A DNA stretch of 64,000 bases, taken from NCBI RefSeq assembly GCF_030684315.1, contig NC_081369.1, positions 9,400,035 through 9,464,034 on the forward strand, given 5' to 3'. The notes under the pieces are model-generated. The model worked only from the letters and a program-made list of their open reading frames with translations. It searched no databases and was not told where the DNA came from. Made by a program: the position numbers and the translations under genes. Origin of the DNA: Stegostoma tigrinum. Its lineage: Eukaryota. Every line of letters starts with the position of its first letter. Position 1 is the stretch's first letter. This document shows, one piece after another, positions 4,101-64,000 of this stretch.

Positions 4101-6618
4101 AGAGGGGAAGTTGGCTACCACATGCTTCTGCTTAAGCTGCTATTTCGAAATCTTATACCGCTGGTAGTCAAATGCATTTTTCAAAATGTACAACTCACAG
4201 CCTTCTCTGACTCACAATTCGAATTGTGATCTTAAATTAAGTGACCCATTATCGCCCACCATCCACCCAGTGAAATCGCCAACTTATTCCAGACCATCCT
4301 TTACATGAGAATGAAACCCGCGACTTTCGAATACAATTCAAACATTTCATTGCTAACCCCTTGTTGGGGATGTCCGAAATGAAAGTCACACACTTACCAA
4401 TACCACAGCTAGATGTCTGCGGATCAGAATTATTTGAAACCCTTAGCGTTCAACATTCCATCAGTTTTGCAAGAAAAGTTGAAAAGATTTCTGCAGGTTG
4501 GCGGCTTCGATAAATCCACTCACGTTGAATTATGCAATCCTGCATCCGAACCATTCTGCAAGAGGGAGGGAAGGAAACATACATACGAAGTTCGTGAGAT
4601 CGTGAAAAATTCGGTTTCTTGCCAAGGAAACATTTAACAGAGTTAGAAAAACAGAAGCGAGAATAAGCGGTATTGTTAAAACCCAAACAAATAACCTGGG
4701 CGCGGCGGGTGAAGACTATTTGATTTTATTTTTTTCTCTCGTTGTGACCATAGAAACAAATGGAGATTTTCTTTTTTCTCTTGTTGGGTATCTGGAGCGA
4801 AATGTTTTTTTTAATTTCTCAACGTGTCACTCCAGCTAGCCAGCTATATTATTCTCAGGAATTCATAGGAAACATACACAGGAACATGAAGGAGTTTCAA
4901 AGTAATTATGGCCAGATTATGGCAATCAGACAATCTTGGTTATTGCTCACTTCTTGACCATCAAGCATCGACTATATGAACTGTACCTGTCGCTCTGCTG
5001 TCTTGATTTCATTTTTTAACCTGGATTTGCATCTTGGCGCAGGATCCAACATGGTTCGTGTAACACCAAGTGTAACGATTCAATTACTCTTTGTATGGCC
5101 AAAATACAATAACGAACCTCTGTGCTCACTTTGCATCTGTCCCAAGTAGCATTGTAATTGAGATTATCCATTTAACGCAACTGCAAAAATTCAGAAAATC
5201 TTCCTGTCACTCTTAACTGTTATTGTGAAATATTGAAGAAACCGTACTCCATTGACTGCCCAAAGCTGTGTGTTAAAGTAGTCATTTGACCAAACACAGA
5301 GATTATACGTGAGAGAATTGCCTCTTTAACTAAAGGTATAAACACTATTTGAAGCCTTGCTGAAGCCGTCATTTTGGGAGTGACAATTATGGGTGAGTCG
5401 TCCTGTGTGAGAAGGGTTTGCAAGTCTTTAGTTCTTAAGAAGGCATCACTGGACTCGAAACATCAAATGGTGCCAAACCAGTTGAGTTTCGCCAGCAATG
5501 TCTTCTTTTGCTTCAGATCTTTGGCATTCACAGTTCTTTGTTTTGTTTATTTAAAGTTTTCTTCACCACATGCGAGCGTTTCTGCATGTGTTGTCAGTGA
5601 AACACCAATTGGATGGGCTTCAAATCTCGGTTGTTTTTTTTAGAAAAGAAATCTTCAGGGTCGTAGCACATAGCATTCCAATCAGAATATTTAGTACCTA
5701 AATGACAAAAATGTTTAACCATACAGCTTCCAGTCAAATATGCAGTCATTCCAGATTTGCAGCAATTCAGAATGTTCAACTCTAACCACATTTTTCACAG
5801 CATTTCAAAGCTTGAATGAATTGAACAGTTCAAATGACCAGGCAATGATTAGGGAAGAAAGATCAAGAACTGATTTTGAGAACTTGTAGTTTTAATCATC
5901 ACGATCAAGCTGGCTATTTCATTTGTGATACACACCTTTTGGTGTGTATTTTTTATATAAGCTGACAACTAGTTTTTCTTTTCACTCCCATAATACGTTT
6001 TGATGCTGGTGTCTCTTAAAATACTGTCAGTACAATGTCTGGAAGCTAACCATATCAAATTCACCCATCATTAAATTGCAGGATCTGATCAGATTATCCA
6101 GGCTTCAGTATTTCCATTTTATTGGCAGGATTGGAATGTATATAATTAATAGTATCAGTAATCAGCCCAATAATTCATCTCTTGTCCATGGTTCCAAGCT
6201 ATTGTTTCATCGAAGAATGTTTTGCATTGCTGAGAGTGTAGCTTGCAAAGCCTAGAATTTGCATAGATGCAATGGGGAAATAGACTGTTCAGCTCCCCTA
6301 GATATTGTTAAATGTAAGGACGTAAAAAGCAGAAACTGCTGCATAGCATTTAATGCTACAATTCTTTTCAATATCCATTCATTCCTTTGGTCCCACTGAG
6401 ATTATTGATCTCAATCTTGACTAAATTCAACAAATGGACATCCACGACCCCTAGGATTCGAAACTGTCTGGCCTTTGATCAGAGATCACAGCCATGGGGA
6501 ATACTTTCCAATCTAACCATTCCCTCAAAATATTTTGCATGTTTCAATTAGATCAACTCTAAATCTTGCCAATTCTGGGCAGTAAAGGAGCAATTTGCAC
6601 AAACTTTTCAAAGGACAG

Positions 6619-6791
6619 AGATAGTAGAAACTGCCAGTTCTGGAGAATCTGAGATAACACGGTGTGAAGCTGGATGAACACAGCAGGCCAAGCAGCTTCA
6701 GAGGAGTCGGAAATTTTGACATTTCGGGTCTCGACGCTCCTCTGATGCTGCTTGACCTGCTGTGTTCATCCAGCCTCACGCCATGTTAGCT
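6619..6791. mobile_element. Palindromic Penelope-derived short element, family A, with 15-bp TSD
   Basis: Inverted arms gctggatgaacacagcagg/cctgctgtgttcatccagc; TSD CTTTTCAAAGGACAG at 6604-6618 and 6792-6806. Confidence 0.88.
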
Positions 6792-8169
6792 CTTTTCAAA
6801 GGACAGTTGCCTTCCCTTGTGAGCCCTAGAGTCTTTCTTTGAGTAAGATGGCCAAAGCTGTATGCAGTACCTCAGGTCCGAGCTGATCAGTGCCCTTTGT
6901 AGCTGTGGGAAGGCATTTTTATTTCAGACTTAATTAAATAATTGAATTTAAATCCATACTTTTGTATAATCTGTCCTAACTTAGTTGTCTGCTTTGGCTA
7001 TTACACGAGCTGCCTGCTTGAAGTACGAATCTCAGAAGATGAGAACAGAGAGGCACAACAAATAATTGACATAATAATTTGTAATAAGTGGCAATTAAAA
7101 AAAAATAAAACAGCACAGGCTACGGGTAACTGAGAAATGCTGTCTTCCTATCCATTCAAATTCTTTCAAGTCACAAAAATGCACTATGTAATTGAAATCA
7201 GTGGATGGTGCTCCTTTATGAGATTTAGTGTGTAAATATCGTTGCCATACACTAATCACAGTAGCATAAGCAAACAGGAACAATCAGCTTTAATGTTTGA
7301 TTGCACTTACTATTACAGGATTAAGATTTAATAATTTAGCAAGCAAAAGGTAAAATAAATTCCCAGTTACAATAGCCATGTGTTTTCTTACCTTTCCCAT
7401 GATCTTCTAAAGCTATTTGGCAAGTCCATATCAGTAGTTATAGAACATAGAATAATACAGCGCAGAATGTCCTTAAATTTTAAATTAATTTAGACAGAAT
7501 CTGTCATCAGAGATTTAAGACACAGAAGCTCTGAAACATAATGTGGTCCCTCAAGGAATTGTAAAGGATTCCTTGATCTTTTTATAAACAAGAGCAGAGG
7601 AAGTCTCGCAGTGTCCTGGCCACCACATTTCTCTCAACTCATCTTGTTGAGGCAAATGAACGTACTTTTATCCAGGTGAATGCTCTGGAAAAGAACATTT
7701 TCTTTATTTGAGCATTGAATACATCCAATTCAAATATGATGCGGATAATATCAAAAGCGTAACTGTCTTACCTCCATCTTTAGAAAAGTGCCATCATCAA
7801 AGCATTAACTCACCAGTTTTTTTCACTGCTGTTCATGTGGAATGTGTAAATTTTAAAACAAATCAATTGCTATGCTAATTGTTTTGGTGCACAGCATACA
7901 GGAGCTAGAATCAAATGTTCAAACCCATAACTCGGCTACTTAAAGAGGAAGTTCACGGATTTGAAGTTGTAGCCTGGTCCATATTGGAATATTGAATATC
8001 TGATGTGTTTTTGTACAGGCAGTTTATACTGCTTATACTTCACAACATCATCTGTATAGTGCCATCAGTACAAACTGGGATATTGAAGTTCATTAAGCAC
8101 CTGTCGATCTAAAACATGATCATTTTCCTTCTAAAATTAAATTTCTTTTTTTTTGTGTGCCTCTTGCAG

Positions 8170-18321: not shown

Positions 18322-18590
18322 GAGATAATAGGAACTGCAGATGCCGGAGAATCCGAGATAACAAGGTAAAGAAATGGATGAACACAGCAGGCCAAGCAGC
18401 ATCAGAGGAGCAGGAAGGCTGACATTTTGGGCCTCGACCCTTCATCAGAAAAGGGAGAGGGGAAGAGGTTTCTGAAATAAATAGGGAGAGAGGGGGAGGC
18501 GGATTGAAGATGGATATAGGAGAAGACAAGTGGACTTTGCCCCTGCAGTGGTCGAGAATGCCCTCGACCGTGTCTCCCGCATTTCCCTCA
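18322..18590 (-). mobile_element. Penelope-derived family A arm joined to an inverted Penelope ORF fragment
   Basis: Family A arm with a mutated hammerhead core, followed by cagtggtcgagaatgccctcgaccgtgtctcccgc, which matches the sequence near 56.1 kb. Confidence 0.8.
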
Positions 18591-19679: not shown

Positions 19680-20246
19680 GAGCATAGAACATACATCGAA
19701 CATTACAGCACAGTACAGGCCCTTCGGCCCTCGATGTTGTGCCGACCTGTCATACCAATCTGAAGCCCATCTAACCTACACTATTCCATGTATGTCTGTA
19801 TGCTTATCCAATGATGACTTAAATGTACCCAAAGTTGGCGAATCTACTACCGTTGCAGGCAAAGCGTTCCATTCCCTTACTACTCTCTGAGTAAAGAAAC
19901 TACCTCTGACATCTGTCCTATATCTTTCACCCCTCAATTTAAAGCTATGCCCCCTCGTGCTTGCCGTCACCATCCTAGGAAGAAGGCTCTCCCTATCCAC
20001 TCTAGCTAACCCTCTGATTATTTTATATGTTTCAATTAAGTCACCTCTCAACCTTCTTCTCTCTAATGAAAACAGCCTCAAGTCCCTCAGCCTTTCCTTG
20101 TAAGACCTTCCCTCCATACCAGGCAACATCTTAGTGAATCTCCTCTGCACCCTTTCCAAAGCTTCCACATCCTTCTTAAAATGCGGTGACCAGAACTGTA
20201 CGCAATACTCCAAGTGCGGCCGCACCAGAGTTTTGTACAGCTGCAG
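19680..20246 (-). mobile_element. CR1 LINE 3' fragment, same subfamily as the 31 kb copy
   Basis: ORF LYKTLVRPHLEYCVQFWSP...DKHTDIHGIV is nearly identical to 32202-32810. Confidence 0.95.
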
Positions 20247-20877
20247 CAGTGGTAATGCTGGCACTCACATTCAACTCTGGACAAGAAAGAGTTATTACCT
20301 CTGTCAAACACGAACTCTGATCTCTCTCTCTCCCCTTCAAGATTTATAAATATTGAGAAAATCACAGTGCAGCTTCACATTCCAAGATAAAAGGGTGACT
20401 TTTGTTTTTATTTTCAGTGTTCTCTTTACCAGTGATCCCTCCTTTTTGTTTTGATACAAATGGGCCCTTTGGATCATTTGCTATCCCCAAGTTAAAATTA
20501 TGGGCTGCCCCATGGTAAATTAATAATGTATTAACATGGTACCTTTAACTCGTTTCATCTCTATATTTCTCGCTGTAGCTTGGGGTCTGGTCCTTGAATG
20601 CAATCATCCCTTGCAACCTTCTACAACTGTTTTTGCTTCAGTCAAAAGCGTTGTGGTTCCCTGTTACTATCCTCTTCATCAAGTAATTGATTTATCAGTC
20701 TCTGGGGCTTTGTCTTTGTGAACAGCTCCAGGGATCATTAACTAGCTAACACATGCCAGAAAATTTGGCAATGTTGGTCAGTTCCGACAGTCCAAAGCGA
20801 GTGGCATAGTTAATATCTTGATCTGTCCATCCTCTGCTCTGTCTTGTTACTACAGATGCCATCGGAGCGGATGGACA

Positions 20878-28320: not shown

Positions 28321-28942
28321 AAGATAGAAGCTGCTGAAGAAGTCAAACCTTTTTTCCCCTCTCTTGCTTCCTGCTAGAAAGTGGGGTTTCTCTTCATTCT
28401 ACAAATGTTGCATGTAGGAAAGCCTGATTTTTGAATTTGCCTTTTTGCCAATGGCTATGGTTATGGGATTTTACTATATTAGAGCAGTGAATTAGTAATG
28501 GTTGCTCTATTTATTTTCTGTTAAGTTTTCCAGTAGAATTGTTATTCCAAGTTCTTCCTTCTTTTGTTGAATTTAAACTATAGTTTTGAATACATTGTGT
28601 TTTGCTTAATATCAACTAGATTGACCATTCCAATTGCATTTGGACACAGCATCTCCCATTTACCGTTAAAATAAGAAAATGTTAGGTTCTGGGCTCAAAA
28701 GCAGAAATTGCTGGAATAGCTCAGCAGCTCTGGCAGCATCTGTGGAGATAGAACAGAGTGAGTGCTTTGGTTCAAGTTATCTTTCCTCAGAACTGAGGGT
28801 CTACATTACATTCTTAATACATTTTGACGGCTGGTCCATAGCAGTTGTCCTTGTGAATATGCACATCCATTGTTTTTACTTCCTCTCCTTTAGAGGATTG
28901 TGTAGACAAGTATAACTGCTGTTAGTATTCATTGACTCACAG

Positions 28943-29258: not shown

Positions 29259-30764
29259 ATATGTATGATTACAGAAAAGAGATGAATAAGATGAGAATGC
29301 CCCACAACTCTGTTATAGCATTAGTGCAGGTTAGATTAGAATTGAATTGGTAAACCGCTCAGATTTGGGTGTGGAGGTTTAACATAAAGCCTAATTGAAA
29401 GGAGAATGCTTGGAATTTAATTCCTTAAAATTGATTTTTGATGGAATGTTCTTGCAAAAAAATTGCAGAAAAATGCATTTGTGTATTCAAAAGCTAAATT
29501 CCTGTCTATCTAAGGCACTCTTCTCCTCTTTAAAATATTTACAGTGCAAAATCACGTACAGTTGCTTTATGGAAACGTTTAGTCAGTAGTATGAAAAAAA
29601 GGAGATAGTGATGCACAATTTGTATTTTATTAATATAATGAAGCTTACAGAACTAATGTTAATGCAGGATGTTGCGTACGTCAGATGTAAAGAATGTCTA
29701 CTTATAAATATTTTAGAAATTAACTCGTTTAAAAACGTCTAAAACAATTCCATGCCATAATCTTAATCTGATCAGATTTCTCTTCATGACCTTCAAGATA
29801 ATGTTGTATTTGTGGTATTTCTTGGTCTCGAGAAATGTTAAAAAGATAAATTTTCACATCGTGGAAAATGTACTGCCTAGGTACGAATAATCAACAGTTC
29901 CTGCTTCATACAAACAGTATTTAATACCAAAAAGGGATCAACCATTTCAATTGAAGAATCACTCTTCCTTAATCGTAACTGAGAAGCATATAAAATGAGA
30001 AGAGTAGTAGGCTATTTGACCCATGAATAGAGACAATTTATTTAATTCATCAGCTTGTATTTATAAACTACACATTCTTTTTGGGTAAGATTTCCAAATG
30101 CTTGGAAATGATGCAACCACATTATGGAGAATTGTTAATGATTGAGAGCAACATTTATGTAATTGGGAAGATAATTGACAAAGGAGAGGTAATACTGAAA
30201 ATATTGTACATTCAGTGAAAGTACTTAAAGGAGCAATACTTTGGATTAAATATAAGTTTCGCAGAATGTTCAGAACAATGACTCGGAACTTCACATGAGA
30301 ATAACATCTTCAACTGTCCAGAGAACAAGAGTGAATTATTGATAAACCAAGTGGATGAAGAGCCAAATCAACATTTCCAGATAAGGACAGAGATTTCTGA
30401 AGCTTTGTGATGATCTGTTAAGAGCACTGCACAATGGGGATCATCATTTCACAAAAGACAAAGGCACTTGCACTGAACTGGGTGAATCCAAGTGTTATAG
30501 AAATGTTGGAAGATGTAAGAGTCTATAGATTGGGAGAGAAGGGAAAAAGAAATGTGATACAGTTAAGACACATTCAGCATTGATTCAGAACAATGGGCCC
30601 TTTGTTTAAATTAACAAAACTAATTTTTAAATTGAAAATTAGCCAAACACTCACTTATAAATATTTAGAGAACTTGCCATGGTTAAATGTGGATGAATGA
30701 AATTCTACATCAACAGGAATCATGAAAGAGTGAGATAACTTTTCTTGCTCTTGACTATTTTAAA

Positions 30765-32890
30765 GATTTAGGGAGCATAGGATGGGGAAGGAAACTGCAG
30801 GGGATGGGCACATTAGAAATGTGGAGCTTATTCAAGGAAAAGCTCCTGTGTGTCCTAGATAAGTATGTACCTGTCAGGCAGGGAAGAAGCTGTAGAGTGC
30901 GGGAGCCGTGGTTTACGAAGGAGGTGGAATCTCTCTTCAAGAGGAAGAAGAAGACTTATGTTAGGATGAGATGTGAAGGCTCAGTTAGGGCACTTGAGGG
31001 CTACGAGGTAGCCAGGAAAGACACAAAGAGAGAGCTCAGAAGAGCCAGGAGGAGACATGAAAAGTTGTTGGCGGATAGAATCAGGGTAAACCCTAAGGCT
31101 TTCTATAGGTATTTAAGGAATAAAAGAATGACGAAAGTAAGATTAGGCCCAATCAAGGATAGTAGTGGTAAGTTGTGTGTGGAGTCAGATGAGATAGGGG
31201 AAGCGCTAAATGAATATTTTTCAACAGTATTCACTCTAGAAAATGAAAATGTTGTCGAGGAGTATATTGAGATACAGGCTACTAGACTAGGTGGGATTGA
31301 GGTTCACAAGGAAGAGGTATTAGAAATCCTACAGAGAGTGAAGATAGATAAGTCCCCTGGGCCGGATGGGATTTATCCTCGGATCCTCTGGGAAGCCAGG
31401 GAGGAGATTGCTGAGCCTTTGGCATTGATCTTTAACTCGTCATTGCCTACAGGAATAGTGTCAGATGACTGGAGGATAGCAAATGTGGTTCCCCTGTTCA
31501 AGAAAGGGAGTAGAGACCACCCTGGTAATTATAGACCAGTGAGCCTTATCTCAGTTGTTGTAAAGTGTTGGAAAAGGTTATAAGGGATAGGATTTATAAT
31601 CATCTAGAAAAGAATAAATTGATTAGGTATAGTCAGCACGGTTTTGCGAAGGGAAGGTCGTGCCTCACAAACCTTATTGAGTTCTTTGAGAAGGTGACCA
31701 AACAGGCAGATGAGAGTAAACCGGTTGATGTGGTGTATATGGATTTGGGCAAGGCGTTCGATAAGGTTCCCCACAATAGGCTATTGTACAAAATGCGGAG
31801 GAATGGATTTGTGGGTGATATAGCAGTTTGGATCGGAAATTGGGTTGCTGAAAGAAGACAGTGGGTGGTCGTTGATGGGAAATGTTCATCCTGGAGAGCA
31901 GTTACTAGTGGTGTACCGCAAGGGTCAGTGTTGGGTCCACTGCTGTTTGTCATTTTTATAAATGACCTGGATGAGGGCGTAGAAGGATGGGTTAGTAAAT
32001 TTGCAGATGACGCTAAGGTCGGTGGAGTTGTGGATAGTGACGAAGGATGCTATAGGTTGCAGAGAGACATGGATAAGCTGCAGAGCTGGGCTGAGAGGTG
32101 GCAAATGGAGTTTAATGCAGACAAATGTGAGGTGATGCACTTTGGTAGGAGTAACCGGAAGGCAAATTACAGGGCTAATGGTAAGATTCTTAGTAGTGTA
32201 GATGAGCAGAGAGATCTCGGATGTCCATGTACACATATCCTTGAAAGTTGCCACCCAGGTTGACAGGGCTGTTAAGAAGGCATACAGTGTTTTAGCTTTT
32301 ATTAATAGAGGGATCGAGTTCCGGAACCAAGAGGTTATGGTGAAGCTGTGCAAAACTCTGGTGCGGCCGCACTTGGAGTATTGTACACAGTTCTGGTCAC
32401 TGCATTATAAGAAGGATGTGGAAGCTTTGGAAAGGGTGCAGAGGAGATTTACTAAGATGTTGCCTGGTATGGAGGGAAGGTCTTACGAGGAAAGGCTGAG
32501 GGACTTGAGGCTGTTTTCATTAGAGAGAAGAAGGTTGAGAGGTGACTTAGTTGAAACATATAAAATAATCAGAGGGTTAGATAGGGTGGATAGGGAGAGC
32601 CTTTTTCCTGGGATGGTTACGGCGAACACAAGGGGGCATAGCTTTAAATTGAGGGGTGAAAGGTATAGGACAGATGTCAGAGGTAGTTTCTTTACTCAGA
32701 GATTAGTAAGGAAATGGAATGCTTTGCCTGCAACGGTAGTAGATTCGCTAACTTTAGGTACATTTAAGGCGTCATTGGATAAGCATATGGACGTATATGG
32801 AATAGTGTAGGTTAGATGGGCTTGAGATTGGTATGAAAGGTCGGCACAACATCGAGGGCCGAAGGGCCTGTACTGTGCTGTAATGTTCTA
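30765..32890 (+). mobile_element. 5'-truncated CR1 LINE, ORF2 reverse transcriptase with two frameshifts
   Basis: ORFs 30804-31583, 31565-32263 and 32202-32810 carry KSPGPDG, NYRPVSL, GVPQGSVLGP, FADD and RPHLEYC, followed by a CR1 3' UTR. Confidence 0.97.
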
Positions 32891-50309: not shown

Positions 50310-50975
50310 AGTACAGTAGACTAGATTCGGAGAAGCGGTGCTTCACTTGGAAGGTGTGTCAGAGACCTTGGATATTGAGGAGGAAGGAAGTAAATGGTCA
50401 GGCATTACACCTTCTGTGCACAAGATGAAGGGTCTAGGCCTGAAACGTCAGCTTTTGTGCTCCTGAGATGCTGCTTGGCCTGCTGTGTTCATCCAGCTCC
50501 ACACTTTGTTATCTGGCACGTAAGTAAGCGACTGGTTCTCGCATCCTGTTGAACGGAGTGGAAATGGCAGTTTACAGACCTTTGGGTGTGGGTTCTGGTG
50601 ATCACAATGTCGTCGCCTCTACATTGCAGAGATTTTTTAATGATTGAGATTAGATTAGATTCCCTACAGTGTGGAAACAGGCCCTTCGGGCCAACAAGTC
50701 CACACTGCCGGTTGAAGCATCCCACCCAGACCCATCCCCCATAACCTGAAGCGCAGACTGAGGAATTGATTTGAAGAACATGTGCGTTTTTGTCTGCAAA
50801 AATGATCTTGAACTTGCTGTTGCCGATCACTTCAATACGCGAGTGTTCGCTTGCGAGTATCTTTGAATCGGGCTTGCTGCAGAGCTCCAGCGAAGTTATT
50901 GCAAGCTGGATGAGTAACATCTCATTTTCTGTCTTGGGACACTGGAGCCCTCAGAACTCAATATAGACTTCAATC
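50310..50975. mobile_element. Decayed Penelope GIY-YIG region fragments with nested family A half element (50424-50513) and SINE
   Basis: Similar to the Penelope 3' region at 56.4-56.8 kb (catctcattttctgtcttgggacactggagccc). Confidence 0.55.
50646..50745 (-). mobile_element. HE1-type SINE 3' fragment
   Basis: (attag)n tail plus cctacagtgtggaaacaggccc, as in the 49.5 kb copy. Confidence 0.8.
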
Positions 50976-53522
50976 CTTTAAAAGGATAAGTACCTTCTCC
51001 CCTCTCCTTACCCCAAACTGCAAACAACATGAGCTGCTATCATAACCAACCCATTGTAAGCTACCAATGGTCCAGGTCATGAGGAAGAAGCTGATTTTGG
51101 AAGAAATGCTGACAAGAGTGTACAAAGTTATTAGAAGTTTTAGTAAAATTGAAACAAAAGAATCACAATGCTCTGTAAAATAGTCTAACGCACCTGCTTG
51201 CATTGTGCCAGGAATTTCCACATTGCTTGATTACAATGAAGATTTTTTCCTGAGCAGGATATTTTGTGATCTAGGTAGTTTAAAATCAATATTGTCAGGG
51301 GCATTGATGCACACATGTAGAGCAGATGAGCCGCGAAGCTGGCCTGCCTGGCTTACAGTTAAGGAAGCTATTGTGCAACACTAGATCGCTACCCCATGTC
51401 CTCCATTGCATCTACACAAATTAAGTGCACGTGTTTTTATGGTTGCATAATTTAGCAAATATTTCGAATTAATGATTCTCCAAAGGGAGAGTCACCCTTT
51501 ATTTGGACGGAGTGCTTCGCACCACTTCTCATAAGGAAAACATGCAGGTTGCGCCCTCGAGATGCAACGTACCGCTGCATTTTGTCTTTTTTTTCTTTTT
51601 CACTATTACTTCATCAGAATTTGTTGCATTTCTCCGCTCAATTCAACGTGTTTTCTGCTCAGTTTTCAGTCTGTCACATCAAACTCAAATGACTCCATTC
51701 GAAGGCGCATGTCTGTTATAAATCCCTATGACAGTGGCTGGTAATATAATCACCATTTCTCGATGGATCCTGCCCTTCGGCATTTCAAACTATTGATAAT
51801 GCTCTGCAGCTTCTCCTCTATTATCCATTACAATCAGGTTGCATTCATTGTCAGGCCGTGGAACAATATCAGAAAGTATAGTTCTGAGAGAAGTTTGTTC
51901 ACCCAGACATTGTGAGCCTGTGGAATATTCTGTAACAGAAAGCAGTTGAATGTTTTCATGAAGGCGTTAGATCCCCTTTTCTGAGGGATAAAGAGGTCAA
52001 AGAGTGTGGGAAGGAAACAGGAACAGGGTATGAATTGGATCATCGGCCACGATCATATTGGATGGAAGAGCAGGCTTGCAGAGCCAAATGGCCTTAACCC
52101 TGCTCCTATCTGTACCAACCTGGGTTTCGAAAAGGCAGAACATATCTAATTTATATGATTATGACTTTACTAAAGAATGGGCAATGTTGATGAGGACAAT
52201 GCGAGTGTTTTGGTATCTGTGTAATTTCTAAACATTTCAAACACTGTTACAAAATAGGGCAGATAACAGGCCCGTTATTCATGGAATCAAAGCAAAATGG
52301 TCGTAGTCGCAGCAATGTCAGATACCAGAGAGAATCGCAAGCATACAATGTCAAATTAAAGGAACACTTTCAAATGGAGTTCTGCAATTGGGAGGACCTG
52401 AGACTATCTGCGCACTGCTTGGTGAAATTGGCAATGTTCAGAGAGCAAATGATTAGTGTGATATCCAATTTCAACGGCGTTACTATAATGATAATAACAG
52501 TGTACCAAGGCAAGGATATTGTGGCGCAGAATTTGCAAGAATGATAAAAAGAATTGAAATTCTTGGCGTTTTGTGGAACGATTTAAATTCCAACTTCAAG
52601 CTGCACTCAATTGATTATTTTAGAAGTGCATTCATTGTCATTAAAAAGAAACGCGGCAATCGACGTGCGCTGCCAAAATCTGCGAAAAGCAATCAGCTAA
52701 AAATATCAGGGAGTCTCTGTTTTTATGATGATCGGAGCATAAATACTAGAAAGAACGCCAATAATTCCACAACTCTACTTTCATAAAATGAACTCAATGG
52801 ATTGCTTAACATTTGTTCGACCTTGCACAAAGTTTAAAGTTGCATTGGAAATCCGGCATCCCTGCCGTTACAGCGTGCCAACGTGTCTGTCCTGGTTTTT
52901 GTGTTGCTTTACAGAACTGTATCTTCCACCCAGAAAATTTTAGCACTGAGGAAAAATTCCAACTCACTGAGAGATTACTTCCCAAAAATTTGCCTGATTC
53001 CATGGATGGAAATGAGTGGTGAAGCCCCGTCTATTGCCGTTCAAGACGAAAAAGTTGAGAATTCAAACCACGAGAGTTCTGAAGGGAATGCATAATGGCC
53101 AACTGAGCCCATTGACAGAAACTCCAAGCATCAAAGCCTCCGATTATCGAAAACGTGAAAACGATGCTACGTGATCAACATCTGTGGTCAAGACCTGGAT
53201 GTCCTCATTAAAACAGTGATGGAGCCAGATCTACCTGCGTTTAGAAAGAATATGGGCATTAGCAGCGTTAGTTAACTCTGCATTTGAAAATCAAATGTCT
53301 TTTGCTCTTTTGCATTACTTGATAAACACGATTTCAGACGTGACATACACACAGAAACTGCAAAATAGCATTGACCATACGAGACTCAAATTACCGACCG
53401 CACTCACAGGATGTTAAACGTCATTGCCACGTATCTGATACAGTGAGCAAACTGGAAACCCGTCTTAGCAGTTACTAAAGCGCGTAGCTGCACAGCGTGG
53501 TTAGAACAAACCATCATTAATA

Positions 53523-53577: not shown

Positions 53578-56500
53578 GTACTTTGGTTTTTGATTCACAG
53601 AACTGCTTTAATTCATTAAAGACTTTCGATGCAGCTCCTCCTTCCATTAAATAATCTTAATTCATCTATCTTGTTAAGAACTTAACTCTCCTATCTTTAT
53701 GCCGAATACGACAGTTAACTATGTTTTATTTTGTTTCTGACAGCTGCGGACCACACTTGTTTTAGGGTTACTCAAATACCTAAAAGAGCAGCTGCGAACA
53801 GACGGGAAGACATTACCTTCTACTGTACATTCTCCATTTGTCAGCAAAGTTCAAAGCCAAATGTAATTTGGTGGAAGCAGGTTGGGAATGAACGTGTTCA
53901 GATTGAAGCCAGTGGTAGACAACAATTTGGATTTGAAAATGAAGCAACAGCGTTCCTTAGCTTGCTGCGCGTTGATATCCAAGATTCTGGACATTATCAC
54001 TGCACGGTGAATTACCAAGGAATCGGTCAAAGAAGCGGAACCCCGTCCCAGCTATTTGTGCGTGGTAAGTGAGAGCGACACTGTCTGAAATAATTTGAAA
54101 TAACAAGATATTTCCTGATCGCTGATTTCACCAATATTGGCGGTTAAATCGTGTCCAGTTATCATTTATACAGGAACCTACCCTTGATATTTCAGTTCCG
54201 TTGAAAAAAAGTAAAATTACACGATCAATATCACCGGTAGAAAACTGAAGCTTTTATAAATATTAACAATTTACGCTGTAATTCTAAAGACAGCCTATAC
54301 ACTATGTGCTTTTTGCCGATATACAAAACTTCCGATGTACATAGGCAACAAGAAACCGCTTTGTCAGGCTATTCGTCCACAATTCTTAGTCCCTGGTATG
54401 TTATTGAAGTCGTGTGACTGCCCGACAATTATTTTTTCTGAGATTGAAGATTCTAGAAATTTATTCTCACATTAATTTCACGTCATAATTTGAAAATCAG
54501 CATGAACTTATTTCATGAGTGAAGGAATCGATGCAAAAGAAACACAGTTTGACAGATACAAGTAGGTACAATCACTGACCTAGAATAAATAAAACAACGC
54601 AGAGAATCTGTAGCAATAACAAATTTGCTGGAAAAGCTCAGCAGGTCTGGCAGCATCTGTGGAGGACAAAACAGAGTTAACGTTTCGGGTCCGGTGACCC
54701 TTCCTCAGAACTTAAAGTTCAACTGATTCAATGTGTTTTGTCAATTGAAATGCCTTGTTTTTGAAATCCGACTGATACAGTGATCTTGGGGTAATCGGCA
54801 ATCTGCAACTTCACCGCCGTTATGCACTTGAGCTTAAAAAAAACACCAGGGCAGACGAGCACAATTTGCTTTGTTCCTTTCTTGTGCGCAAGCTCAATTT
54901 AATTAATTTATTCAAATATGCGACATAAGCATTGCGAAGCATTTTGTAGTTTTGTTCTGCCGAGGAAGGCCAAGTATTGGATTTGATAATTCAAGTAAAA
55001 ATGGATAAAAGCCGCTGCCTGGAGAGCTATTTGTTTCATTAACTGAATGCTTGTGCATAAAATTAAGTTGAGAAGAAACTGCACTTCTGAGCATTGTATT
55101 TCTAGGAAAGCATAGCGTCTGTAAATCAGCCTCAAATTTAACAATTTCTGATTTGTTCCAGTAACTTGGCTTTGTTCAATCTCTGCTTGCAGTTGCTCCA
55201 GTCCCACTGAAAATTACGCCCAAGTTTCACGAAGAAAATTCACTTGTGTCTTTGACCCTTCTGTGTGAAACAGCTGCATTTTATCCGGAGGATTTCACCC
55301 TCGCCTGGTATAAAAACGGCACGAAAACTACAGTCGGTATAAATACGAGCAAGGTGCAGAACAGTGAGGGACTGTATGAAGTATCCAGTTCTTTGGTTGA
55401 TCCTCATCCTCCCTCAAGTAATCTCAAGTATACCTGTGAAATATCTCACATCTCCCTCAAGACGCCTGCTGTTGTAACCCACAGTATTTCCACATTTGGC
55501 GGATTCCAAAAAGGCGAGTTAGTTGCTGTCAGTTTTGTTACGAAATGCATCGTAGAATAGTGCAACGTGTGGGCCTAATCCGCAGTGGTTTCATGGAGAT
55601 GTATTTAAATGTATTATACTAAGTTGACATCTCTGTTGTAAGAGCATCAAAACTTATTTGGTATTCTATTTCTTTGACTTTTGAAATAGTAATTATGTTC
55701 AGAATTGAGCTGATCTATCCATTTGTTTCTTCCTATCATTTTGTCCACGTTCACCTTCTTTGCCCAAGCTATGCCTACCTCTTTGTAGGTTACGTGGCAC
55801 AATCCCTCTTCTGTACCTACACTGGTCCTAAACATCACTTTTTCCTCTGTTACATTGATGACTGCATTGCCATCTCCTTGTGCTCCCATGAGGAGCTCGA
55901 GCAGTTCATCCACTTCACCCACAGACTCCCACAGCTACCTGGAATACACCTCCTCCCACCCACCTTCCTGCAAAAATGCCATTCCCTCCTCCCAATTCCT
56001 TTGTCTCTGCCACATCTGCTCCGAGGATGAGGCATTCCACTCCCGTACATCTCTGATGTCCTCGTTTTTCAAGGATCGCAACTTCCCTGCTCAATGGTTG
56101 AGAATGCCCTCGACGGTGTCTCCCGCATTTCCCACAACTCATCCCTCACACATCCTCCCTGCAAAAACAACCAAAACAGAATCCCCCTCATCCTCATGTA
56201 CCACCTCACCAACCTCCTGATCCAATGCATCATCTTCCGACACTTCCGCCATCTGCAATCCGACCCCACCCTTAAAGACGTTTTTCCCACCCTCATCTGC
56301 TTTTTGGAGGGACCACTCTCTCCATGAATCCCTCGTCCGCTCCACACTCCCCTCCAGCGCTACCACACCGACACTTTTCCCTGCAACCACAGGAAGTGCT
56401 ACACCTGCCCCTACACCTCCCCCTTCACCCTCATCTCAGGTCCCAAGAAGACTATCCACATCAAGCAGATGTTCACCTGCACATCTGCTAATGTGGTATA

Positions 56501-59500
56501 CTGATCCACTGTTCCTGTTGTTGCCTCATCTACATCGGGGAAACCACGCGGAGGCTTGGGGACCACTTTGCAGAACACCTATTCTCAGTTCGCACTAAAC
56601 AACTGCACCTCCCAGTTGCGAATCTTTTCAACTTCCACTCCCGTTCCGCAGGTGACATGTCCATCCTGGGCCTCCTGCAGTGCCGCAACGATGCTACCTG
56701 AAGGTTGCAGGAACAGCGTCCTATATTTCACTTGGGAACCCTGCAGCCCAATGGTATCAATGTGGACTTCACAGGCTTCAAAATCTCCCTCCCCCACTGC
56801 ATCCCCAAACCAGTCACTTTCTGGATTACCCCAATCCAGAAATTGAAGTGGACAGTTGAGAAAATGCTTGTGATATCATTCCTCTAAATTTAAGAAAGCA
56901 TAATTAGTAAGTAAGAAAGCTCGAGAACAACAGTATTTTGATTCATGGGGAATTGACTTATCTCATATTCCTACCTTTCCGAAACAGTCCTTTGTGTTCC
57001 ATAAATTGACAATCTATTCCAGAGATTGATTCAGAATTTGCCATGTTGGATCAAGAATTCACTTCGATATTTAACAGAAATAATCTTTGGCAGTTCAGCT
57101 TTTTCATTGTCCTTGAATAGCGCTGTGCAGTTGAAAGTATCATCACATTTTAAGCAAAGAACTAAAGTGACAATATTTTTAATTTAATGATCACATGCAA
57201 ATAATGTCTTCTTTATCCTGCAGACAGTATCAACAATTCACTGGTCATCTGGCCTTCAGTTCGTTATGTGATTTTCTCGGCGCTTGTTGTAATTCTGTTC
57301 GTGTTTGGGACTACAAAGTACTTGAGGATATCAGAAGTAAGGTCTACTATCAAAGCTTGCTTTTCGCACAGGGCCTGGGTTCATTTGCCATTTCTGGAAA
57401 ACAAGCAGGATACTTATTAGGGATAATTCGAATTGGTTGAAGACTGAAAAATGCAATCATTTTGTTCTTTTTTCCCCCGCAAACGTGGATTGCTCCAAAG
57501 CCACTTAAAAACACAAGAAGGTTCTTGGAAACATGAGTGAACCATTCAGCCCCTTTGGGCCTGTTCTGCCATTCAAAGAGATCATGGTTGATGAATGGCT
57601 TAACTCTATATCCTTGTCCCTAAACACTTTGCTTAACAAAAATAAATCGATCCCAGATTTAAAATTAAAATTAACTTCTATTTGTTGAAAAGTCTTGCAA
57701 ACATGTGCATAGAAGAGCTTCCTCACATCTTTCTTGAATGATCTTGTTGCAAGTTTTAGAGTATGACCACCAGTTCTAGAATCCACAACCAGCAGAAGTA
57801 GTATATGTTACTGACAAAGTGTGAAGAGGGTCTTCGGTCCGCCTCCTCCTCTCTCCCTATTTATTTCAGAACCCTCACCCCATCCCCCTCTCTGATGAAG
57901 GGTCTAGGCCCGAGACATCAGCTTTTGTGCTCCTGAGATGCTGCTTGGCCTGCTGTGCTCATCCAGCTTCACACTTTGTTATTTGGATTCTCCAGCATCT
58001 GCAGTTCCCATTATCACTGATACTATATTACTGACACTCTCTTTTGCTGTTAATGTCGTAAAGCCTTCAATTAGATCATCTCTCAACCTTCTAAATTAGA
58101 GAGAAAATAGTCTTAGTTTGTATAATCCCTCCATGTAATTAAATCCCTAAAGTCCACAATTATCATTCTGGTAATTGTACATCATACTCCTTCCAAGGTC
58201 AATGCACCTTTCCTGTGGTATGCTGCTCAGAACCGTTCACAGCTCACCAAAATGTTTTCAAATGTAAACAATGCTCACGTGTGTTAATTTCCAAAGGCAC
58301 ATTTCAGTTTTCAACATGAGAAATGAAATTTATCACAATAAATATGAAGTAGGTAATTCGATGCTTCTGTCAAGTAATGATTGCTCCTTGAAAGAATGGA
58401 GGATTAATAGCAGATTCTGATGTTGCAACCGTCTGATCTCTGCGAGCAACATAATCAAATGTATTCTGCCTCAACGGAACATTCACATCCTTTCTCTAAT
58501 ACTTTGATTCAGAAAAATGCGCTCATTTTCTGCATGGAAACTGAGTCAATATTTTCATCACTCAATGCAATTATATTTCATTGGTTTGCAGGTAAAGAAG
58601 AATGCACAAGGCAATCAGACTGCCATGTCAATGTGGTAAGTTCATATCATCATCATGCTTGGAGTTTGAAATGTTTGGATCAATGGCAATAATGGAAGAA
58701 ATATACATTAATAATGACAGAACATTTTATATCTATTTATTGAAAGACTATTCATCTGGTATGTGTGTGTTTCAGAGCCAGGTTTGAAGCGCAATTTGTA
58801 CAACTTGTATTACTGATGAAGGTTGGCAAGTGGATCTTCTTTAAAAAAAAACCGTAATCATATCTTTGAGAATGTTGCAAGGTTGAGTCACGTTTTAGGG
58901 TTGAGAACAAATTTACTGTCTAAACCCATTGCATCTAACACTTAACATTATGTTTCAGCATGAATATGAGGAAGTTTGAATTGTTGCATTGAACACTGAG
59001 ATTAACATTGTCTTCATGCAGATATATCTATAATATGGATTCTGCAAGGGATGTCGAGTCTTGGTTAAATATGCTTAGTCCTTGATGTAGAAAATCTTCG
59101 AGACAATGAAAAGGACACTTATTGAAGTGTTGTTCTTGTCCTCACAGGAAGCCATGGCGGAGGTTTCCTGCAATAGACTTAGGCAAAAACAGGAGAACTC
59201 CTAGACATACGTTTGAAATAGAGAAAAACATGCCTATTGAGGTAGGGCGGAGTGGGAGAACACAAAATCAGGATAAAATTGTGATTCAAGATAATAAAAT
59301 GTGAGGCTGGATGAACACAGCAGGCCAAGCAGCATCTCAGGAGCACAAAAGCTAATAAAATGTGAGGCTGGATGAACACAGCAGGCCAAGCAGCATCTCA
59401 GGAGCACAAAAGCTACTTGGCCTGCTGTGTTCATCCAGCCTCACATTTTATTATCTTGGATTCTCCAGCATCTGCAGTTCCCATTATCTCTAAAATTGTG

Positions 59501-59802
59501 ATTCAGCCTGACAATGAAGGCATTTGCTTCTATGGACATTAGCCAAATGTCATTTTGAAGCCTATTTTTGTGTCCTTCTGATTAGTGCTTTGCAGAAAGT
59601 TTATAAAAAAGGCCAATTAATAACATTTCCAAATAATATCTTTACAGCTCTCCATGTTGCTATCGGCAGTAAGATGACATACAGTCCTCTAAAGTTCTCT
59701 GTTTCTGCGAAGAAGGCACAGAGATTGCTTGAGCTGCAGACTGAAAAACAAAACAAAGTAACAGAAGATATCCATGCACAAGCAAGAAATAACAAGGCTT
59801 AA
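53523..59802 (+). CDS. Spliced gene: non-rearranging VJ-C1-TM Ig superfamily receptor (SIRP-like / NCR3-related architecture)
   Basis: Phase-compatible exons 53523-53577, 53744-54064, 55193-55513, 57224-57336 and 58592-58635, followed by either 59148-59304 (336 aa) or 59148-59241 + 59596-59802 (384 aa). Both models are open throughout. Two AATAAA signals at 59895 and 59911. Confidence 0.8.
53744..54064 (+). CDS. Ig V-set domain exon with germline-encoded J-like G strand
   Basis: Acceptor tttctgacag and donor G|GTAAGT, phase 1/1. Motifs FRVTQ, ITFYC, VIWWKQ, AFLSLLRVDIQDSGHYHC, GQRSGTPSQLFVR. Confidence 0.93.
54612..54720 (-). mobile_element. Family B half element in the V-C1 intron
   Basis: ttgctggaaaagctcagcaggtctggcagcatctgtgg...cccttcctcagaac. 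Confidence 0.85.
54675..54712 (-). ncRNA. Minimal type I hammerhead ribozyme (Penelope-type), intact consensus
   Basis: Minus strand AGUU-CUGAGGA-A-GGGUC-ACCG-GACCC-GAAAC-GUU/AACU: both core boxes, 5-bp stem II, 4-bp stem I, and the palindromic AACGUU stem III remnant. Confidence 0.8.
55193..55513 (+). CDS. Ig C1-set domain exon
   Basis: Acceptor ctctgcttgcag. VAPVPLKI...LTLLCETAAFYPEDFTLAWYKNG...GLYEVSSSL...YTCEISHISL contains the C1 hallmarks (CxxxxFYP, W, YxCxxxH). Ends at a GC donor, AAG|GCGAGT. Confidence 0.92.
55755..56812 (+). mobile_element. Penelope-like element fragment (RT + GIY-YIG endonuclease) in the C1-TM intron
   Basis: PSYAYLFVGYV...YIDDC; PTDSHSYLEYTSSHP..CKNAIP.SQFL; LIYIGET.RRL..FAEH; frameshifted. 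Confidence 0.93.
57224..57336 (+). CDS. Transmembrane exon DSINNSLVIWPSVRYVIFSALVVILFVFGTTKYLRISE
   Basis: Acceptor tctttatcctgcag with phase-1 entry matching the C1 exon; hydrophobic stretch followed by basic residues; donor GAA|GTAAGG. Confidence 0.85.
57500..58250 (-). mobile_element. Decayed CR1 3' region in the intron after the TM exon
   Basis: SRTGGHTLKL...FKKDVRK plus 3' UTR; split by a Penelope-derived insertion. Confidence 0.7.
57817..58023 (+). mobile_element. Penelope-derived family A element with about 13-bp TSD
   Basis: TSD TATGTTACTGACA (57804-57816) / TATATTACTGACA (58024-58036); hammerhead core mutated. Confidence 0.85.
58592..58635 (+). CDS. Short (44 nt) cytoplasmic exon
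   Basis: Acceptor ttggtttgcag and donor GTG|GTAAGT. Its length bridges the phase-0 TM donor to the only open frame of the next exon. Confidence 0.6.
59148..59802 (+). CDS. Terminal cytoplasmic exon region, interrupted by a Penelope-derived insertion
   Basis: Acceptor ttcttgtcctcacag; open frame KPWRRFPAIDLGKNRR... The distal segment carries MTYSPL and the decayed motifs IFTAL and IHAQA, stops at 59802, and is followed by polyA signals. Confidence 0.55.
59289..59490. mobile_element. Palindromic family A element with internal 61-bp tandem duplication and 15-bp TSD
   Basis: TSD TAAAATTGTGATTCA at 59274-59288 and 59491-59505; 61-bp unit at 59292-59352 and 59353-59413; ribozyme core deleted. Confidence 0.92.
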
Positions 59803-59916: not shown

Positions 59917-60039
59917 GCAGATAGACATAGCGAGTACCTATCCTTTTAATGGCCAATTAATCCCTATTATTGGTTTTTAAGAACACCAACAACCTGCTTT
60001 GAAAGTATGTTTGAAAGACACTTTGCTTGAAGCAGAGTA

Positions 60040-60507
60040 AATGAGAATTGCAGGAGAATCCAAGATAACAAAGCATGAAGCTGGATGAACACAGCAGGCC
60101 CAGCAGCATCTCAGGAGCACAAAAGCTGGCATTTTGGGCCTAGACCCTTCATCAGAGAGGGGGATGGGGAGAGAGTTAGGGTTAGAGTTAAACCCTAACC
60201 CTATCGCCTGTCCCCGTCCCCCTCTCTGAAGAAGGGTCTAGGCCTGAAACGTCAGCTTTTGTGCTCCTAAGATGCTGCTGGGCCTGCTGTGTTCATCCAG
60301 CTTCACACTTTGTTATCTTGGATTCTCCAGCATCTGCAGTTCTCATTATCTCTGATCACAATTTTAACCGCACTGTGAAGCCTCTTCCAGGGATGCCTAA
60401 CCTGAAGAAGTTACCTTCCTCTCTCTGGACCAACCTTAGGGAATCTCTCTCCAACTGCAACTCTCTTGTCCACCTATCTTCTCCTCTATCCATCTTCAGA
60501 AGTTGCT
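60040..60507. mobile_element. Palindromic family A element followed by Penelope-like internal sequence
   Basis: Inverted arms around a loop at about 60171-60210; plus-strand hammerhead core CTGAAGA...GAAACGTC at 60226-60253. Confidence 0.85.
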
Positions 60508-63500
60508 TGAAGCAATTGGCTGCCTCTCAGAGCTTCTTGCTTGCTCTTATTGCATTTGTCTAATCAGAATCTAGTTGCTTGCTGTCTGCATCCATGCCTT
60601 GCCTTGATTTGTACTGTGTTTGCAGAGCCACACAGCTACCTTGCAAGTGAATACTTCATAGTCAATGAGGTATGCAACCTGTAATACGCAATGTGTGACA
60701 TGAGTGTCGCAGCTGCGACTTGTGTCAGCAGTTTATGCACCAAACACACATCATGTGTAGCCAACAGGCAGCCATGTCTCAAAGTCAAAGGGAAAGAGAC
60801 GGGTGCGACATCCTTGGAGGTACCTATCAATTACAGTGACCCAGGAGAGTAATGAACAGCTGTCTCCCATCCCAGTCCAACCATCTGCGGAAGGTCAGGC
60901 GTTTGGCCAGGGTGGTGTTGGTCAGGGTCTGCAATCCGGGGACTGGGTTATGGTCAGTCCAGTGCCTCCATAGCACTTAGGACAGTGGGAAGTGCAAAAG
61001 ACAGAAGGGAAGGCAGTGATATGAGAGGAGGACTTAATCCCCAGTCAGGATCACACTGGCATTTAGGGGTGAGAGGTGGGGAGTGAGAGACGGGTCTATG
61101 ACCACTCCTGGCAAGGTCACCTCATATGGCAATGGTGTGGTGATGATCGTAATTGGCACAAGCAGACTCGAGAAGATGGGCTGCTTGTGGACCTCTGCAG
61201 GTGTAAAGCCTATGGGGTTCATGAGATGGGCAAGCAGTGAGAGAATGCAGACGTTCAGAGGCTCACAAACGTTCAAATGGAATCTAGAAGCCATTGGCCT
61301 AGATTGATCATTGACAGCTTCCATCCTAGTGGAATTTTAATGTGTGCAATGTGAAGCCAAATGGCAGAAAATTATACTTGGATGAAGTTCGTAAGTTTAT
61401 TGAACTGTGAAGGAAGGGGCTGCAGGACTCACCAGTTTGAGACTTTTTAATTGGAAACTATATTACTTGCAGACCAATGAATGTTACAAGGCAGAGATTT
61501 GCAAACTCCTTGATCCTGGGCAATAGGCATGCACTGATCATACGTGTGAACTGTATGTCACTGTCTTGGATATGAATGATTAGCTTATTTATGCCAGCAC
61601 CTTTGCACTCAGGTGCGAGGGTGTTAATATCGTAACATTTCACCTCGGGAGGCGACGGTATCAGCAGAACCCTGTGCTTAATTCTCAACTCTTCATTTTG
61701 TCTCAATAGTTTCCCTTTGTCTTTCTGCCCCTCCGACAGCTTGTCTGTGCTGTCCTTGGTAACATAATTGGGTGGAGCGTACCTGCTTGGCAATGGATTC
61801 CATTGACAATGACGATTTGGGTCAGGCAATCCTGAGAGCATTTATATCTGATATGAATACCATTTCCATTGTATTGTTTGTACCTTGAGTAACTCAGTAG
61901 CACTGTAACAATCATATAAATTAGAAAAATTGTTCATGGCATTTCAGTTACACATCTAAAAGGCACAGATCGTTGAAACGTCAACATTGATGTTAGTCAT
62001 TTTTGAATCTTACGTCCCTGCTCATAGTTTTAATGAATAGTGAACTTCAATTTCGTGAAGCATTTGCATGTCCCAAAAGGCTTGAAACCATCTGATGGTA
62101 TTTAACACATCCACTCACTTGCCACTTCGTGATGTGTTGCAACAATTTCGTCATAGCAAATTTTTATTCGCAACAATTAGATCATTCTGTCTCTGATATT
62201 CTTCACTGAATTACCATATCTATGTAGGTTTGTAAGTTTCTTCTGTAGGTCTTTATGTGACCGAGTACGCTGCCTCATTCATGATTGGCAGAGTCTATGT
62301 GAACTCTCGAATAACGATAACATAATTAGCAAAAACATCTGGAAAATAAATAATTGTCAAAGCTCAGTGGCAATAAAAATACAGTTGGTTGAATGCTGTC
62401 ATAAGATAATTGATGTTTCCTTACATATATTCATAACATTTTCCAACTTCTTATTTGACTCTCTGAGATCCATTCAAGCTCATTCTCATACAACTAAGAT
62501 CACTAATTTTGGCCTTTATCGTACTGAATATCTTCTCCAGCGTCAAGTTTCCTCTGTTGCTGAACCATCATCTGTGATTTAATTCACCTGTGCTCAACGA
62601 TTCCAGTACACACATAGCTGAACTCCCATATTTTATCTTCTGTAAACTGCAGCTAAACCTTTGTTTTTAATGTTTTAACAAATATGGGAGGTATGCTGCT
62701 AGATATTTTGGCTCCCAGTCAAGTGTAATATTAATTTTACAATTCCTATCATCGTTAAAAACTGCCATTTAATTGCCTCTCCTCATCTCTCTAATTGCTC
62801 TACCACTGGCAGCTATCCAAAAATAGTCTCAGCATCTAAGTTATGGAAACATCCTTACATCTCTCCACTCTCATCATTGCGTTAATCCGTAAATGCTTTT
62901 TAAAAGGTACCCATTTCAACGAGTGTTTGGCAGTGTAACCTTACACACCCTGATTTGTTCAATCAATGCTTCGTTTTGTGTTCATTTGATCTGTTTTGGG
63001 AGGCTTAAACATAGGTTTGTCTTCAGATATGCTTTCTTTCCACAGCTCTGAAAGGTCAACCGTGTGAAACCTGAATGGCTCACAAAATAAACAACCTCTT
63101 CAAAGAGAGGCACGTGTGCTTACCGCTAAACTACTGCTGACCATGTATTCTCCTTATGGGTAACAGAAGCCCATTCTTAAGGTAATTTGGTCAACCAATT
63201 GAATTTGCGACAGCACAAGTTCGCTGTAAAGTGTGGACATTTAATTTACTGACACCATTATTTTTCGATTATGAAAATTTATTCTTATTTTGTCAATATA
63301 ACCTCTGGAGTTAAAGAGTCAACCATTATTAAAGTTATGAACTTTAGTGTATATCCGCACTGTAAACAGTGAAAATACAGCAAAGAAAAAACACTTGTAC
63401 TCCCAACCATTACTTCTGACTAATCTACCTCAACTGTTCGAATAATCAATTTAGACACTGGTTTATTGCTTCAACAAAAGACTTCCCGATCTATTAACAA

Positions 63501-63605
63501 CATAATAACCACAATTGAGCGAAACCGAGCAACAAAATAATCCAAGATAATAAAATGTGAGGCTGGATGAACACAGCAGGCCAAGCAGCATCTCAGGAGC
63601 ACAAA

Positions 63606-63639
63606 AGCTGACGTTTCGGGCCTAGACCCTTCATCAGAG
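63606..63639 (-). ncRNA. Minimal hammerhead ribozyme core (minus strand)
   Basis: CUGAUGA-A-GGGUCUAGGCCC-GAAAC-GUC, the mirror copy of the plus-strand core. Confidence 0.65.
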
Positions 63640-63643
63640 AGCT

Positions 63644-63677
63644 CTCTGATGAAGGGTCGAGGCCCGAAACGTCAGCT
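63644..63677 (+). ncRNA. Minimal hammerhead ribozyme core (plus strand)
   Basis: CUGAUGA-A-GGGUCGAGGCCC-GAAAC-GUC; only 2 bp of stem I are evident. Confidence 0.65.
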
Positions 63678-64000
63678 TTTGTGCTCCTGAGATGCTGCTT
63701 GGCCTGCTGTGTTCATCCAGCCTCACATTTTATTATCTTGGAATCTCCAGCATCTGCAGTTCCCATTATCTCTAACAAAATAATCCAATCTGTCTGTTTT
63801 ACTAATTCAAAACCCTTTGTTTTTCGCACCATTCATACAAAGGGCAAACAGACAAACAAGCACAGCTAAGGGACAAATACAATCTACAAGCAAAACTAGC
63901 GAGATTACTTCAGTGATTTCCGTGATGTGTTGTTCCCTGAGCATAGGTGATGTTTTCTTATTTATTTTCTGAACGCGCTGATCAAGGTCAGCTTTCAGTT

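Follow-up and report, generated by a model that had tools for sequence, protein, structure and literature searches.

The palindrome at 63531–63788 of the 64,000-nucleotide stretch of Stegostoma tigrinum DNA analysed here (the window) is a real, young, 5'-truncated inverted insertion of a Penelope-like element (PLE). We consider it very probable that the pLTR end of an endonuclease-positive (EN+) PLE of the Neptune/Nematis type was inserted here as a very short piece flanked by a TSD, likely through double target-primed reverse transcription. The palindrome is an ordinary product of the known PLE integration pattern, and its value lies in being a minimal and readable record of the integration mechanism.

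Layout of the palindrome and its hammerhead motifs

The 228-base insertion is built of two 101-nt arms (63541–63641 and 63642–63742) that abut with a spacer of 0 nt and differ at a single pair of positions (A at 63624, G at 63659). It is bounded by an exact 15-bp direct repeat, with copies at 63531–63545 and 63774–63788. Arms, mismatch, absence of a spacer and TSD were all as described in a sequence-only reading of this DNA made earlier. An exact 15-bp repeat was found in 13 of 20,000 random window pairs of the same spacing, a count that includes real TSDs. The same reading had called the structure a perfect palindrome. The arms do mirror each other, but the right arm continues for 31 nt (63743–63773) without a mirror as a one-sided tail (35 nt when counted from the inner 3' end), and the left arm enters the TSD by its outer 5 nt. 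Because these 5 nt sit within the left TSD, the last 7 nt of which equal the family sequence at that place, the element-derived left arm measures about 96 nt. The two copies (96 nt, short; 132 nt, long) comprise the pLTR end alone, with no ORF, and the long arm differs from the family majority alleles at 2 positions besides the subfamily marks. This copy is non-coding and probably inert. The features of the locus are as follows.

63531..63545, no strand: left TSD copy, 15 bp, 80% A+T; the final 7 nt agree with the element sequence at its inner 3' end, a possible microhomology for priming
63546..63641, minus strand: short inverted pLTR copy without tail, whose 5' end precedes the hammerhead core by 4 nt
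63608..63639, minus strand: minimal type I hammerhead motif, core 63637–63610; stem II loop as in the family consensus, T being the 89% allele at the mirror site
63642..63773, plus strand: long pLTR copy that includes the tail and whose 5' end likewise precedes the core by 4 nt
63644..63675, plus strand: minimal type I hammerhead motif, by its core nucleotides and the descriptor features in the excerpts of PMC4209133
63739..63773, plus strand: tail between two family-wide 3' ends (63738/39 and 63773), by loose ends of contigs and the excerpts of PMC11167929
63774..63788, no strand: right TSD copy, exact repeat of the left copy

The back-to-back cores, one per strand, were also confirmed. They follow the pattern CTGATGA-A-GGGT/GCCC stem-GAAACGTC and start at 63646 (+) and 63637 (−), each 4 nt from the centre. 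The plus-strand motif comprises CUGAUGA at 63646–63652, an extra A at 63653, a helix II of 4 bp and GAAA at 63666–63669; a palindromic ACGU replaces helix III, and the predicted cut lies between 63673 and 63674. The conserved core, helix II and the palindromic minimal helix III expected of a minimal hammerhead were all present. The metazoan PLE minimal hammerheads described in the excerpts of PMC4209133 (Cervera and de la Pena 2014), where dual minimal hammerheads on opposite strands are noted, likewise have an intact core, an extra base after position 9, a G10.1–C11.1 pair, and palindromic 15.2/16.2 without a helix III. They differ in helix I, which has 4–5 bp there, whereas 2 contiguous bp, as in the D. 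virilis PLE, were found here and in both parent-type contexts. They also differ from the present motifs in helix II (4 bp here) and in the distance between the cores, which is 8 nt here compared with about 100–700 bp.

The covariance-model search proposed in the sequence-only reading was negative. Rfam hammerhead models gave no match at the gathering threshold over the window, and the 17 rows obtained at E≤10 over 63300–64000 included no hammerhead and none reaching its gathering score; the hammerhead identity is that of the core nucleotides only. The miRNA-type rows were rejected as generic hairpin matches below gathering scores.

RNA reading through the insertion in either direction was predicted to form a hairpin of −203 or −210 kcal/mol. 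In the predicted fold, the five core and cut-site bases that were checked paired with their mirror bases with P>0.999, and the tail lay outside the long hairpin. A read-through transcript is therefore predicted to bury both cores in the 101-bp duplex. The self-sequestering hairpin of the earlier reading is retained to this extent, as a prediction, while being a by-product of the inversion. The monomer was predicted to fold into an inactive hairpin that pairs CUGAUG with CGUCAG and is no better than shuffles (z 0.26), the hammerhead-like fold having −3.6 kcal/mol compared with −11.4 kcal/mol. Since the cores lie on opposite strands, no cis dimer is possible. The two cores in this copy are best read as passengers, a passive result of inversion.

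Parent element and the dispersed pLTR family

A remnant of the parent type was found within the window:

55758..56830, plus strand: decayed RT–thumb–CX4CXXC linker–GIY-YIG fragment of the parent PLE type, with frameshifts and stops

Its closest proteins among those listed were gene models of whale shark, zebra shark, bamboo shark and rays. An RT and GIY-YIG protein, P0001, with Pfam GIY-YIG above and RVT_1 below the cut-off, matched 55758–56501 (E 8e-63). Alongside it was found P0003, a Stegostoma tigrinum gene model whose C-terminal read-through translation matched the pLTR/hammerhead at 57832–57933 (73.5%, 34 aa, E 1.7e-7). Because P0003 runs from RT–EN into the pLTR, the arm is tied to an endonuclease-positive PLE. 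A pLTR contiguous with an ORF for RT and C-terminal GIY-YIG was thereby found for the family, through P0003, and not in the palindrome copy. By eye, a CX4CXXC linker, matching the CX2-5CxxC pattern expected of this PLE type, was seen between RT and EN in the remnant (56328–56501) and in the P0001/P0003 region. The CX4CXXC-type linker is assigned to Neptune/Nematis in the excerpts of PMC8557442, and on this basis the linker points to a putative Neptune/Nematis-type parent. In addition, an inverted piece of the PLE RT–thumb region directly adjoins the upstream portion of a pLTR copy at 18505–18592, the ORF piece and the pLTR copy abutting at 18541–18592. A second, more diverged GIY-YIG fragment was located at 50789–51031 (+), about 280 nt downstream of the tail-less pLTR copy 50424–50514.

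The RT–GIY-YIG link and the published form of PLEs support the earlier assignment to a Penelope pLTR with minimal hammerheads and inverted pLTRs. The excerpts of PMC3846280 (Arkhipova et al. 2013) describe TSDs, palindromic junctions and inverted pLTRs, one of which has a 31-bp tail, and the plan of inverted pLTR plus tail is given as general for PLEs in those of PMC8557442 (Craig et al. 2021). Like the EN+ PLE insertions in these two sources, the present one has an inverted 5'-truncated copy at the 5' end, a head-to-head junction, a tail of 30–40 bp at one end and a TSD. Unlike them, both of its copies (96 and 132 nt) are reduced to the pLTR end, with no ORF and no spacer. The TSD of the rotifer examples is 8–10 bp, compared with 15 bp here.

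The family is dispersed, with nine loci in the window (about one per 7 kb), five of which are inverted pairs with TSDs of 12–15 bp and five different centres. Relative to the first base of the core, the 5' ends of the arms lie at −4/−4 in the insertion at 63546–63773, about +8/+38 at 6604–6806, −61/about +80 at 57804–58036, +29/+53 at 59274–59505, and −22/−18 at 60023–60514. Sharing of breakpoints among copies had been proposed earlier as a check on mobility; among the window loci, each of the five inverted ones had a centre of its own. The sister insertions are listed below.

6604..6806, no strand: older sister insertion, 15-bp TSD, tail; asymmetric inverted arms (about +8, about +38)
57804..58036, plus strand: sister insertion, 13-bp TSD (1 mismatch), inverted arm of about 13 nt; long pLTR starting at −61, which carries the tail and the upstream sequence of the parent
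59274..59505, no strand: TSD-flanked sister insertion from the young subfamily of the palindrome, lacking a hammerhead core; its long arm carries the tail, and its short inverted arm occurs twice, each time ending at the predicted cleavage nucleotide
60023..60514, no strand: sister insertion, 12-bp TSD, telomere-like spacer; inverted arms end about 18–22 nt upstream of the core

The two arms of each inverted locus share subfamily marks, and one template and two templates were not told apart. Each of the other four loci (18.4k, 34.3k, 37.6k and 50.4k) consists of one arm. Of these, 18.4k and 37.6k were searched for a TSD and showed no clear one, and 34.3k and 50.4k terminate at the inner 3' end. 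The inter-arm spacer of the insertion at 60023–60514 contains TTAGGG/CCCTAA telomere-like repeats in both directions (60174–60207), a possible telomeric filler from the joining step.

The segment 63629–64000 was compared with contigs of four public sequencing runs: X1 and X2, from one sample; X5, with another organism label; and X6, a run of unrecorded kind whose depth is no measure of expression. At least 84,711 contigs were placed in X1. Loose ends at 63738, 63739 and 63773 were found in 500, 280 and 464 contigs of X1 and in 418, 229 and 380 contigs of X2, respectively. The family therefore has two 3' ends 35 nt apart, and the short arm begins at the inner and the long arm at the outer one. 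These tail ends, 63738/39 and 63773, would be two RT initiation sites. For PAc (Poseidon, Anolis), the excerpts of PMC11167929 (Frangieh et al. 2024) show in vitro that the tail spans the distance between two internal start sites of the RT. PAc resembles the present family in its two 3' ends set apart by a tail, its A+T-rich target and a hammerhead in the pLTR upstream of the initiation sites. It differs in that the zebra-shark family has the Neptune/Nematis linker, and PAc initiation is described in these excerpts as non-homologous, compared with a 7-nt target–template identity at the left junction here.

The left-arm bin (13 bases) had a depth of 41,706 in X1 and 25,231 in X2, compared with 2,884,971 and 2,371,663 in the next bin (1.4% and 1.1%); the share was 0.3% in X5 and 0.1% in X6. 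These are shares of depth, not of copy number, and they include chance extension by 1–2 bases and near-identical centres, of which a one-base variant was listed. The −4/−4 centre recurs in many copies, which form a small minority (about 1% of family depth); about 99% of the core-covering depth is without it. The description of the insertion as stereotyped is accordingly true of the two 3' ends, while the centre recurs and yet is a minority. Depth on the unique flank in X1 was 9–63, and 215 (X1) and 157 (X2) contigs ran past the ends of the segment. Loose ends ahead of 63642 yielded the parent's upstream tract, and a 91-nt contig of X2 with 9 differences spanned 63630–63720. Further inversion joints linked 63645 with 63677, 63682, 63691 and 63744, and both 63647 and 63688 with 63740. 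No empty-site contig was found among the loose ends listed, and the unique flank was not covered in X5. Multiple copies of a tandem duplication that takes in the hammerhead region, from 63683 to 63644, were also present (depth 85 and 64); it would place two cores on one strand and could permit a cis dimer.

A search for the same plan in metagenome contigs gave 42 loci with back-to-back cores, 27 of which had a hammerhead-like motif on at least one arm, some being repeats of one locus. The pattern admitted spacers of 0–30, which on average limits the centres found to those less than about 15 nt from the core. Since it selects centres near the core, it shows the generality of the structure and not the frequency of centres. 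In ten of the 22 loci examined, an 11–18-bp direct repeat bounded the arms, and in most of these ten one arm exceeded the other by about 40–55 nt. They represented at least three families that have no sequence relationship with the shark family. Helix I in the metagenome loci ranged from 0 to 6 bp (mostly 2–4). In a comparison of arm against arm at 14 loci, one and two templates were not separated, and the arms shared subfamily marks in most. Minimal hammerheads placed back to back, together with a tail and a TSD, were observed in several unrelated PLE-like families, at L003, L007, L013–L018, L027, L029, L031, L035 and others. The contigs are probably animal host DNA. The family pattern had 0 matches in prokaryote genomes; one match in viral contigs, of 18 nt only, was taken as chance.

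Formation of the palindrome

The shared PLE form, the varying centres and the centre depth of about 1% indicate a truncated PLE insertion and not a retrozyme. In the scheme that we favor, whose order of events we infer from the observed ends, tail and TSD, the GIY-YIG nuclease would nick both target strands with a stagger of 15 nt, and the two 3'-OH ends would each prime cDNA synthesis on element RNA, the one from the inner and the other from the outer initiation site. Both cDNAs would terminate 4 nt upstream of the hammerhead core, at a recurrent but minor stop, and the two cDNA ends would be joined head to head. Cutting and extension of both target strands in vitro are reported in the excerpts of PMC11167929. 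The symmetric, spacer-free centre has no microhomology, and a C run borders the stop. The recurrence of a near-identical centre speaks against this scheme, in that an inherited palindrome would give it too. A transcription start at −4 was considered and set aside: a pyrimidine-rich initiator motif matches at −4, and the upstream tract is so pyrimidine-rich that the match says little.

An alternative with the same PLE origin is fold-back (self-priming) of a single template or cDNA, which we regard as rather unlikely. For the palindromes at PLE junctions, self-priming on an antisense template, and not twin priming, was proposed in the excerpts of PMC3846280. It agrees with the termination of both arms at the same nucleotide, with their shared subfamily marks and with the zero or near-zero spacers in several metagenome loci (L029, L010 and L012). 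On the other hand, a simple fold-back should leave its loop as a spacer, the outer ends are the two family-wide 3' ends, both strands are extended in vitro (excerpts of PMC11167929), and the arms of the loci at 6.7k, 57.8k and 59.3k are strongly asymmetric. The arm mismatch, a common minor allele of the family (T 89%), is a weak hint of two templates. Self-priming explains the asymmetric pairs and the natural outer ends less well than twin priming does.

The palindrome might also be a self-perpetuating non-autonomous unit, in which a hairpin RNA with a single-stranded tail is copied in trans by the PLE RT–EN and the centre is inherited. Because the tail stays outside the predicted hairpin and could still be recognised, such a unit is possible, at a low probability. 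The centre or near variants of it recur in X1/X2 and faintly in X5, and non-autonomous PLE derivatives exist (excerpts of PMC8557442). Against these points stand the five centres at five inverted window loci, the roughly 99% of core-covering depth without this centre, and a duplex of about −200 kcal/mol that the RT must unwind.

Of the two options left by the sequence-only reading, an abortive (5'-truncated) Penelope insertion was supported over a retrozyme-like unit. The latter, taken as independent, has against it the absence of a tandem cleavage-to-cleavage unit, the five centres among five window loci and the small share of the centre in family depth. A retrozyme, that is, a hammerhead-processed circular RNA replicon, is very improbable. 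It would account for the type I hammerhead core, and animal retrozymes are reported to be derived from PLE pLTRs. Non-LTR retrozymes (excerpts of PMC7229834 and bioRxiv 10.64898/2026.07.22.740005) resemble the palindrome in being small, non-coding and PLE-related with a type I hammerhead. However, the known ones described there are head-to-tail tandem repeats with canonical type I hammerheads, whereas the arms here are head to head, with no head-to-tail tandem unit and no canonical hammerhead; the motif is minimal, helix I has 2 bp, and the cores are sequestered in the predicted fold.

An assembly artefact, by a fold-back read or a de Bruijn palindrome, is equally hard to credit. No single contig in the four runs covered the whole of 63629–64000, and the window may itself derive from the X1/X2 sample. 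The exact TSD, the one-sided tail at the natural ends of the family, the single arm mismatch, four sister loci of the same plan and contigs that cross this centre all argue against it.

Joints at the predicted cleavage nucleotide and the neighbourhood

Among the 12 rows of head-to-tail joints listed (93 in all), 5 connected a 3' end precisely with 63674, which directly follows the predicted cut. The 3' ends were 63773 plus 2 or 4 further bases (X1 and X2) and 63740 plus one base (X1), with a depth of 28–44, and no microhomology was seen. Given that a single sample underlies X1 and X2, and that the two 63773 forms may have a common origin, these joints perhaps represent only two independent events. 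In addition, both copies of the short arm at 59274–59505 end at the cleavage nucleotide with no core upstream; this is weaker evidence because both junctions have short imperfect microhomology.

The chances that the family's hammerhead cleaves in vivo are about even. We give the same weight to a specific account in which the hammerhead would cut RNA in vivo despite its 2-bp helix I, and the RT, with the cleaved RNA as its template, would run to the cleaved 5' end at 63674 and jump to the initiation site of another RNA; head-to-tail joints at precisely this position would result. Alternatively, the joints may be insertions into older pLTRs at an endonuclease hot spot (self-targeting). Such self-targeting is allowed by the excerpts of PMC11167929, and a single-copy opposite-strand joint of 63688 to 63740 would fit a 15-bp duplication from 63674. 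None of the 24 loose ends listed, with 600 more beyond the listing, was at 63674, and starts at the cut site are therefore not the dominant 5' end. RNA-seq of PAc showed no RNA ends at the cut site (excerpts of PMC11167929), in contrast to the genomic joints at the predicted cut site here. The function of the hammerhead in EN+ PLEs is given as still unclear in the excerpts of PMC8557442, and those of PMC6765202 cite Lunse et al. 2017 on PLE hammerhead dimers.

If upheld genome-wide, the 63674 joints would be evidence of cleavage in vivo, and the family would then be a large sample for separating twin priming from self-priming. If cleavage and jumping are real, shark PLE micro-insertions would document both the activity of the hammerhead and twin-primed integration on a genome scale. 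A literature search that covered few subscription journals and was made without Repbase/Dfam returned no paper that treats hammerhead palindromes of shark PLEs or genomic junctions at the cut site of a PLE hammerhead.

An immunoglobulin C1-set exon (Pfam E 1.9e-10) was found at 55195–55490 (+), with a likely transmembrane exon at about 57224–57337 (+). The palindrome, about 6 kb downstream of these exons, may be read through. Many near-perfect hairpins of this kind in introns could supply dsRNA.

A second hammerhead-bearing repeat family, with a CUGAGGA core and a GUU triplet, was represented at 22704–22886, 54622–54712, 28705–28790 and 13132–13218. Its helix I has 4 bp at 54708, and its inverted pair at 22.8 kb is centred just upstream of the core. 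Broken LINE-type reverse transcriptase frames, presumably CR1-like, were present at 30726–32810 and 19695–20264, and their 3' ends form an inverted pair of 554 nt separated by 12 kb.
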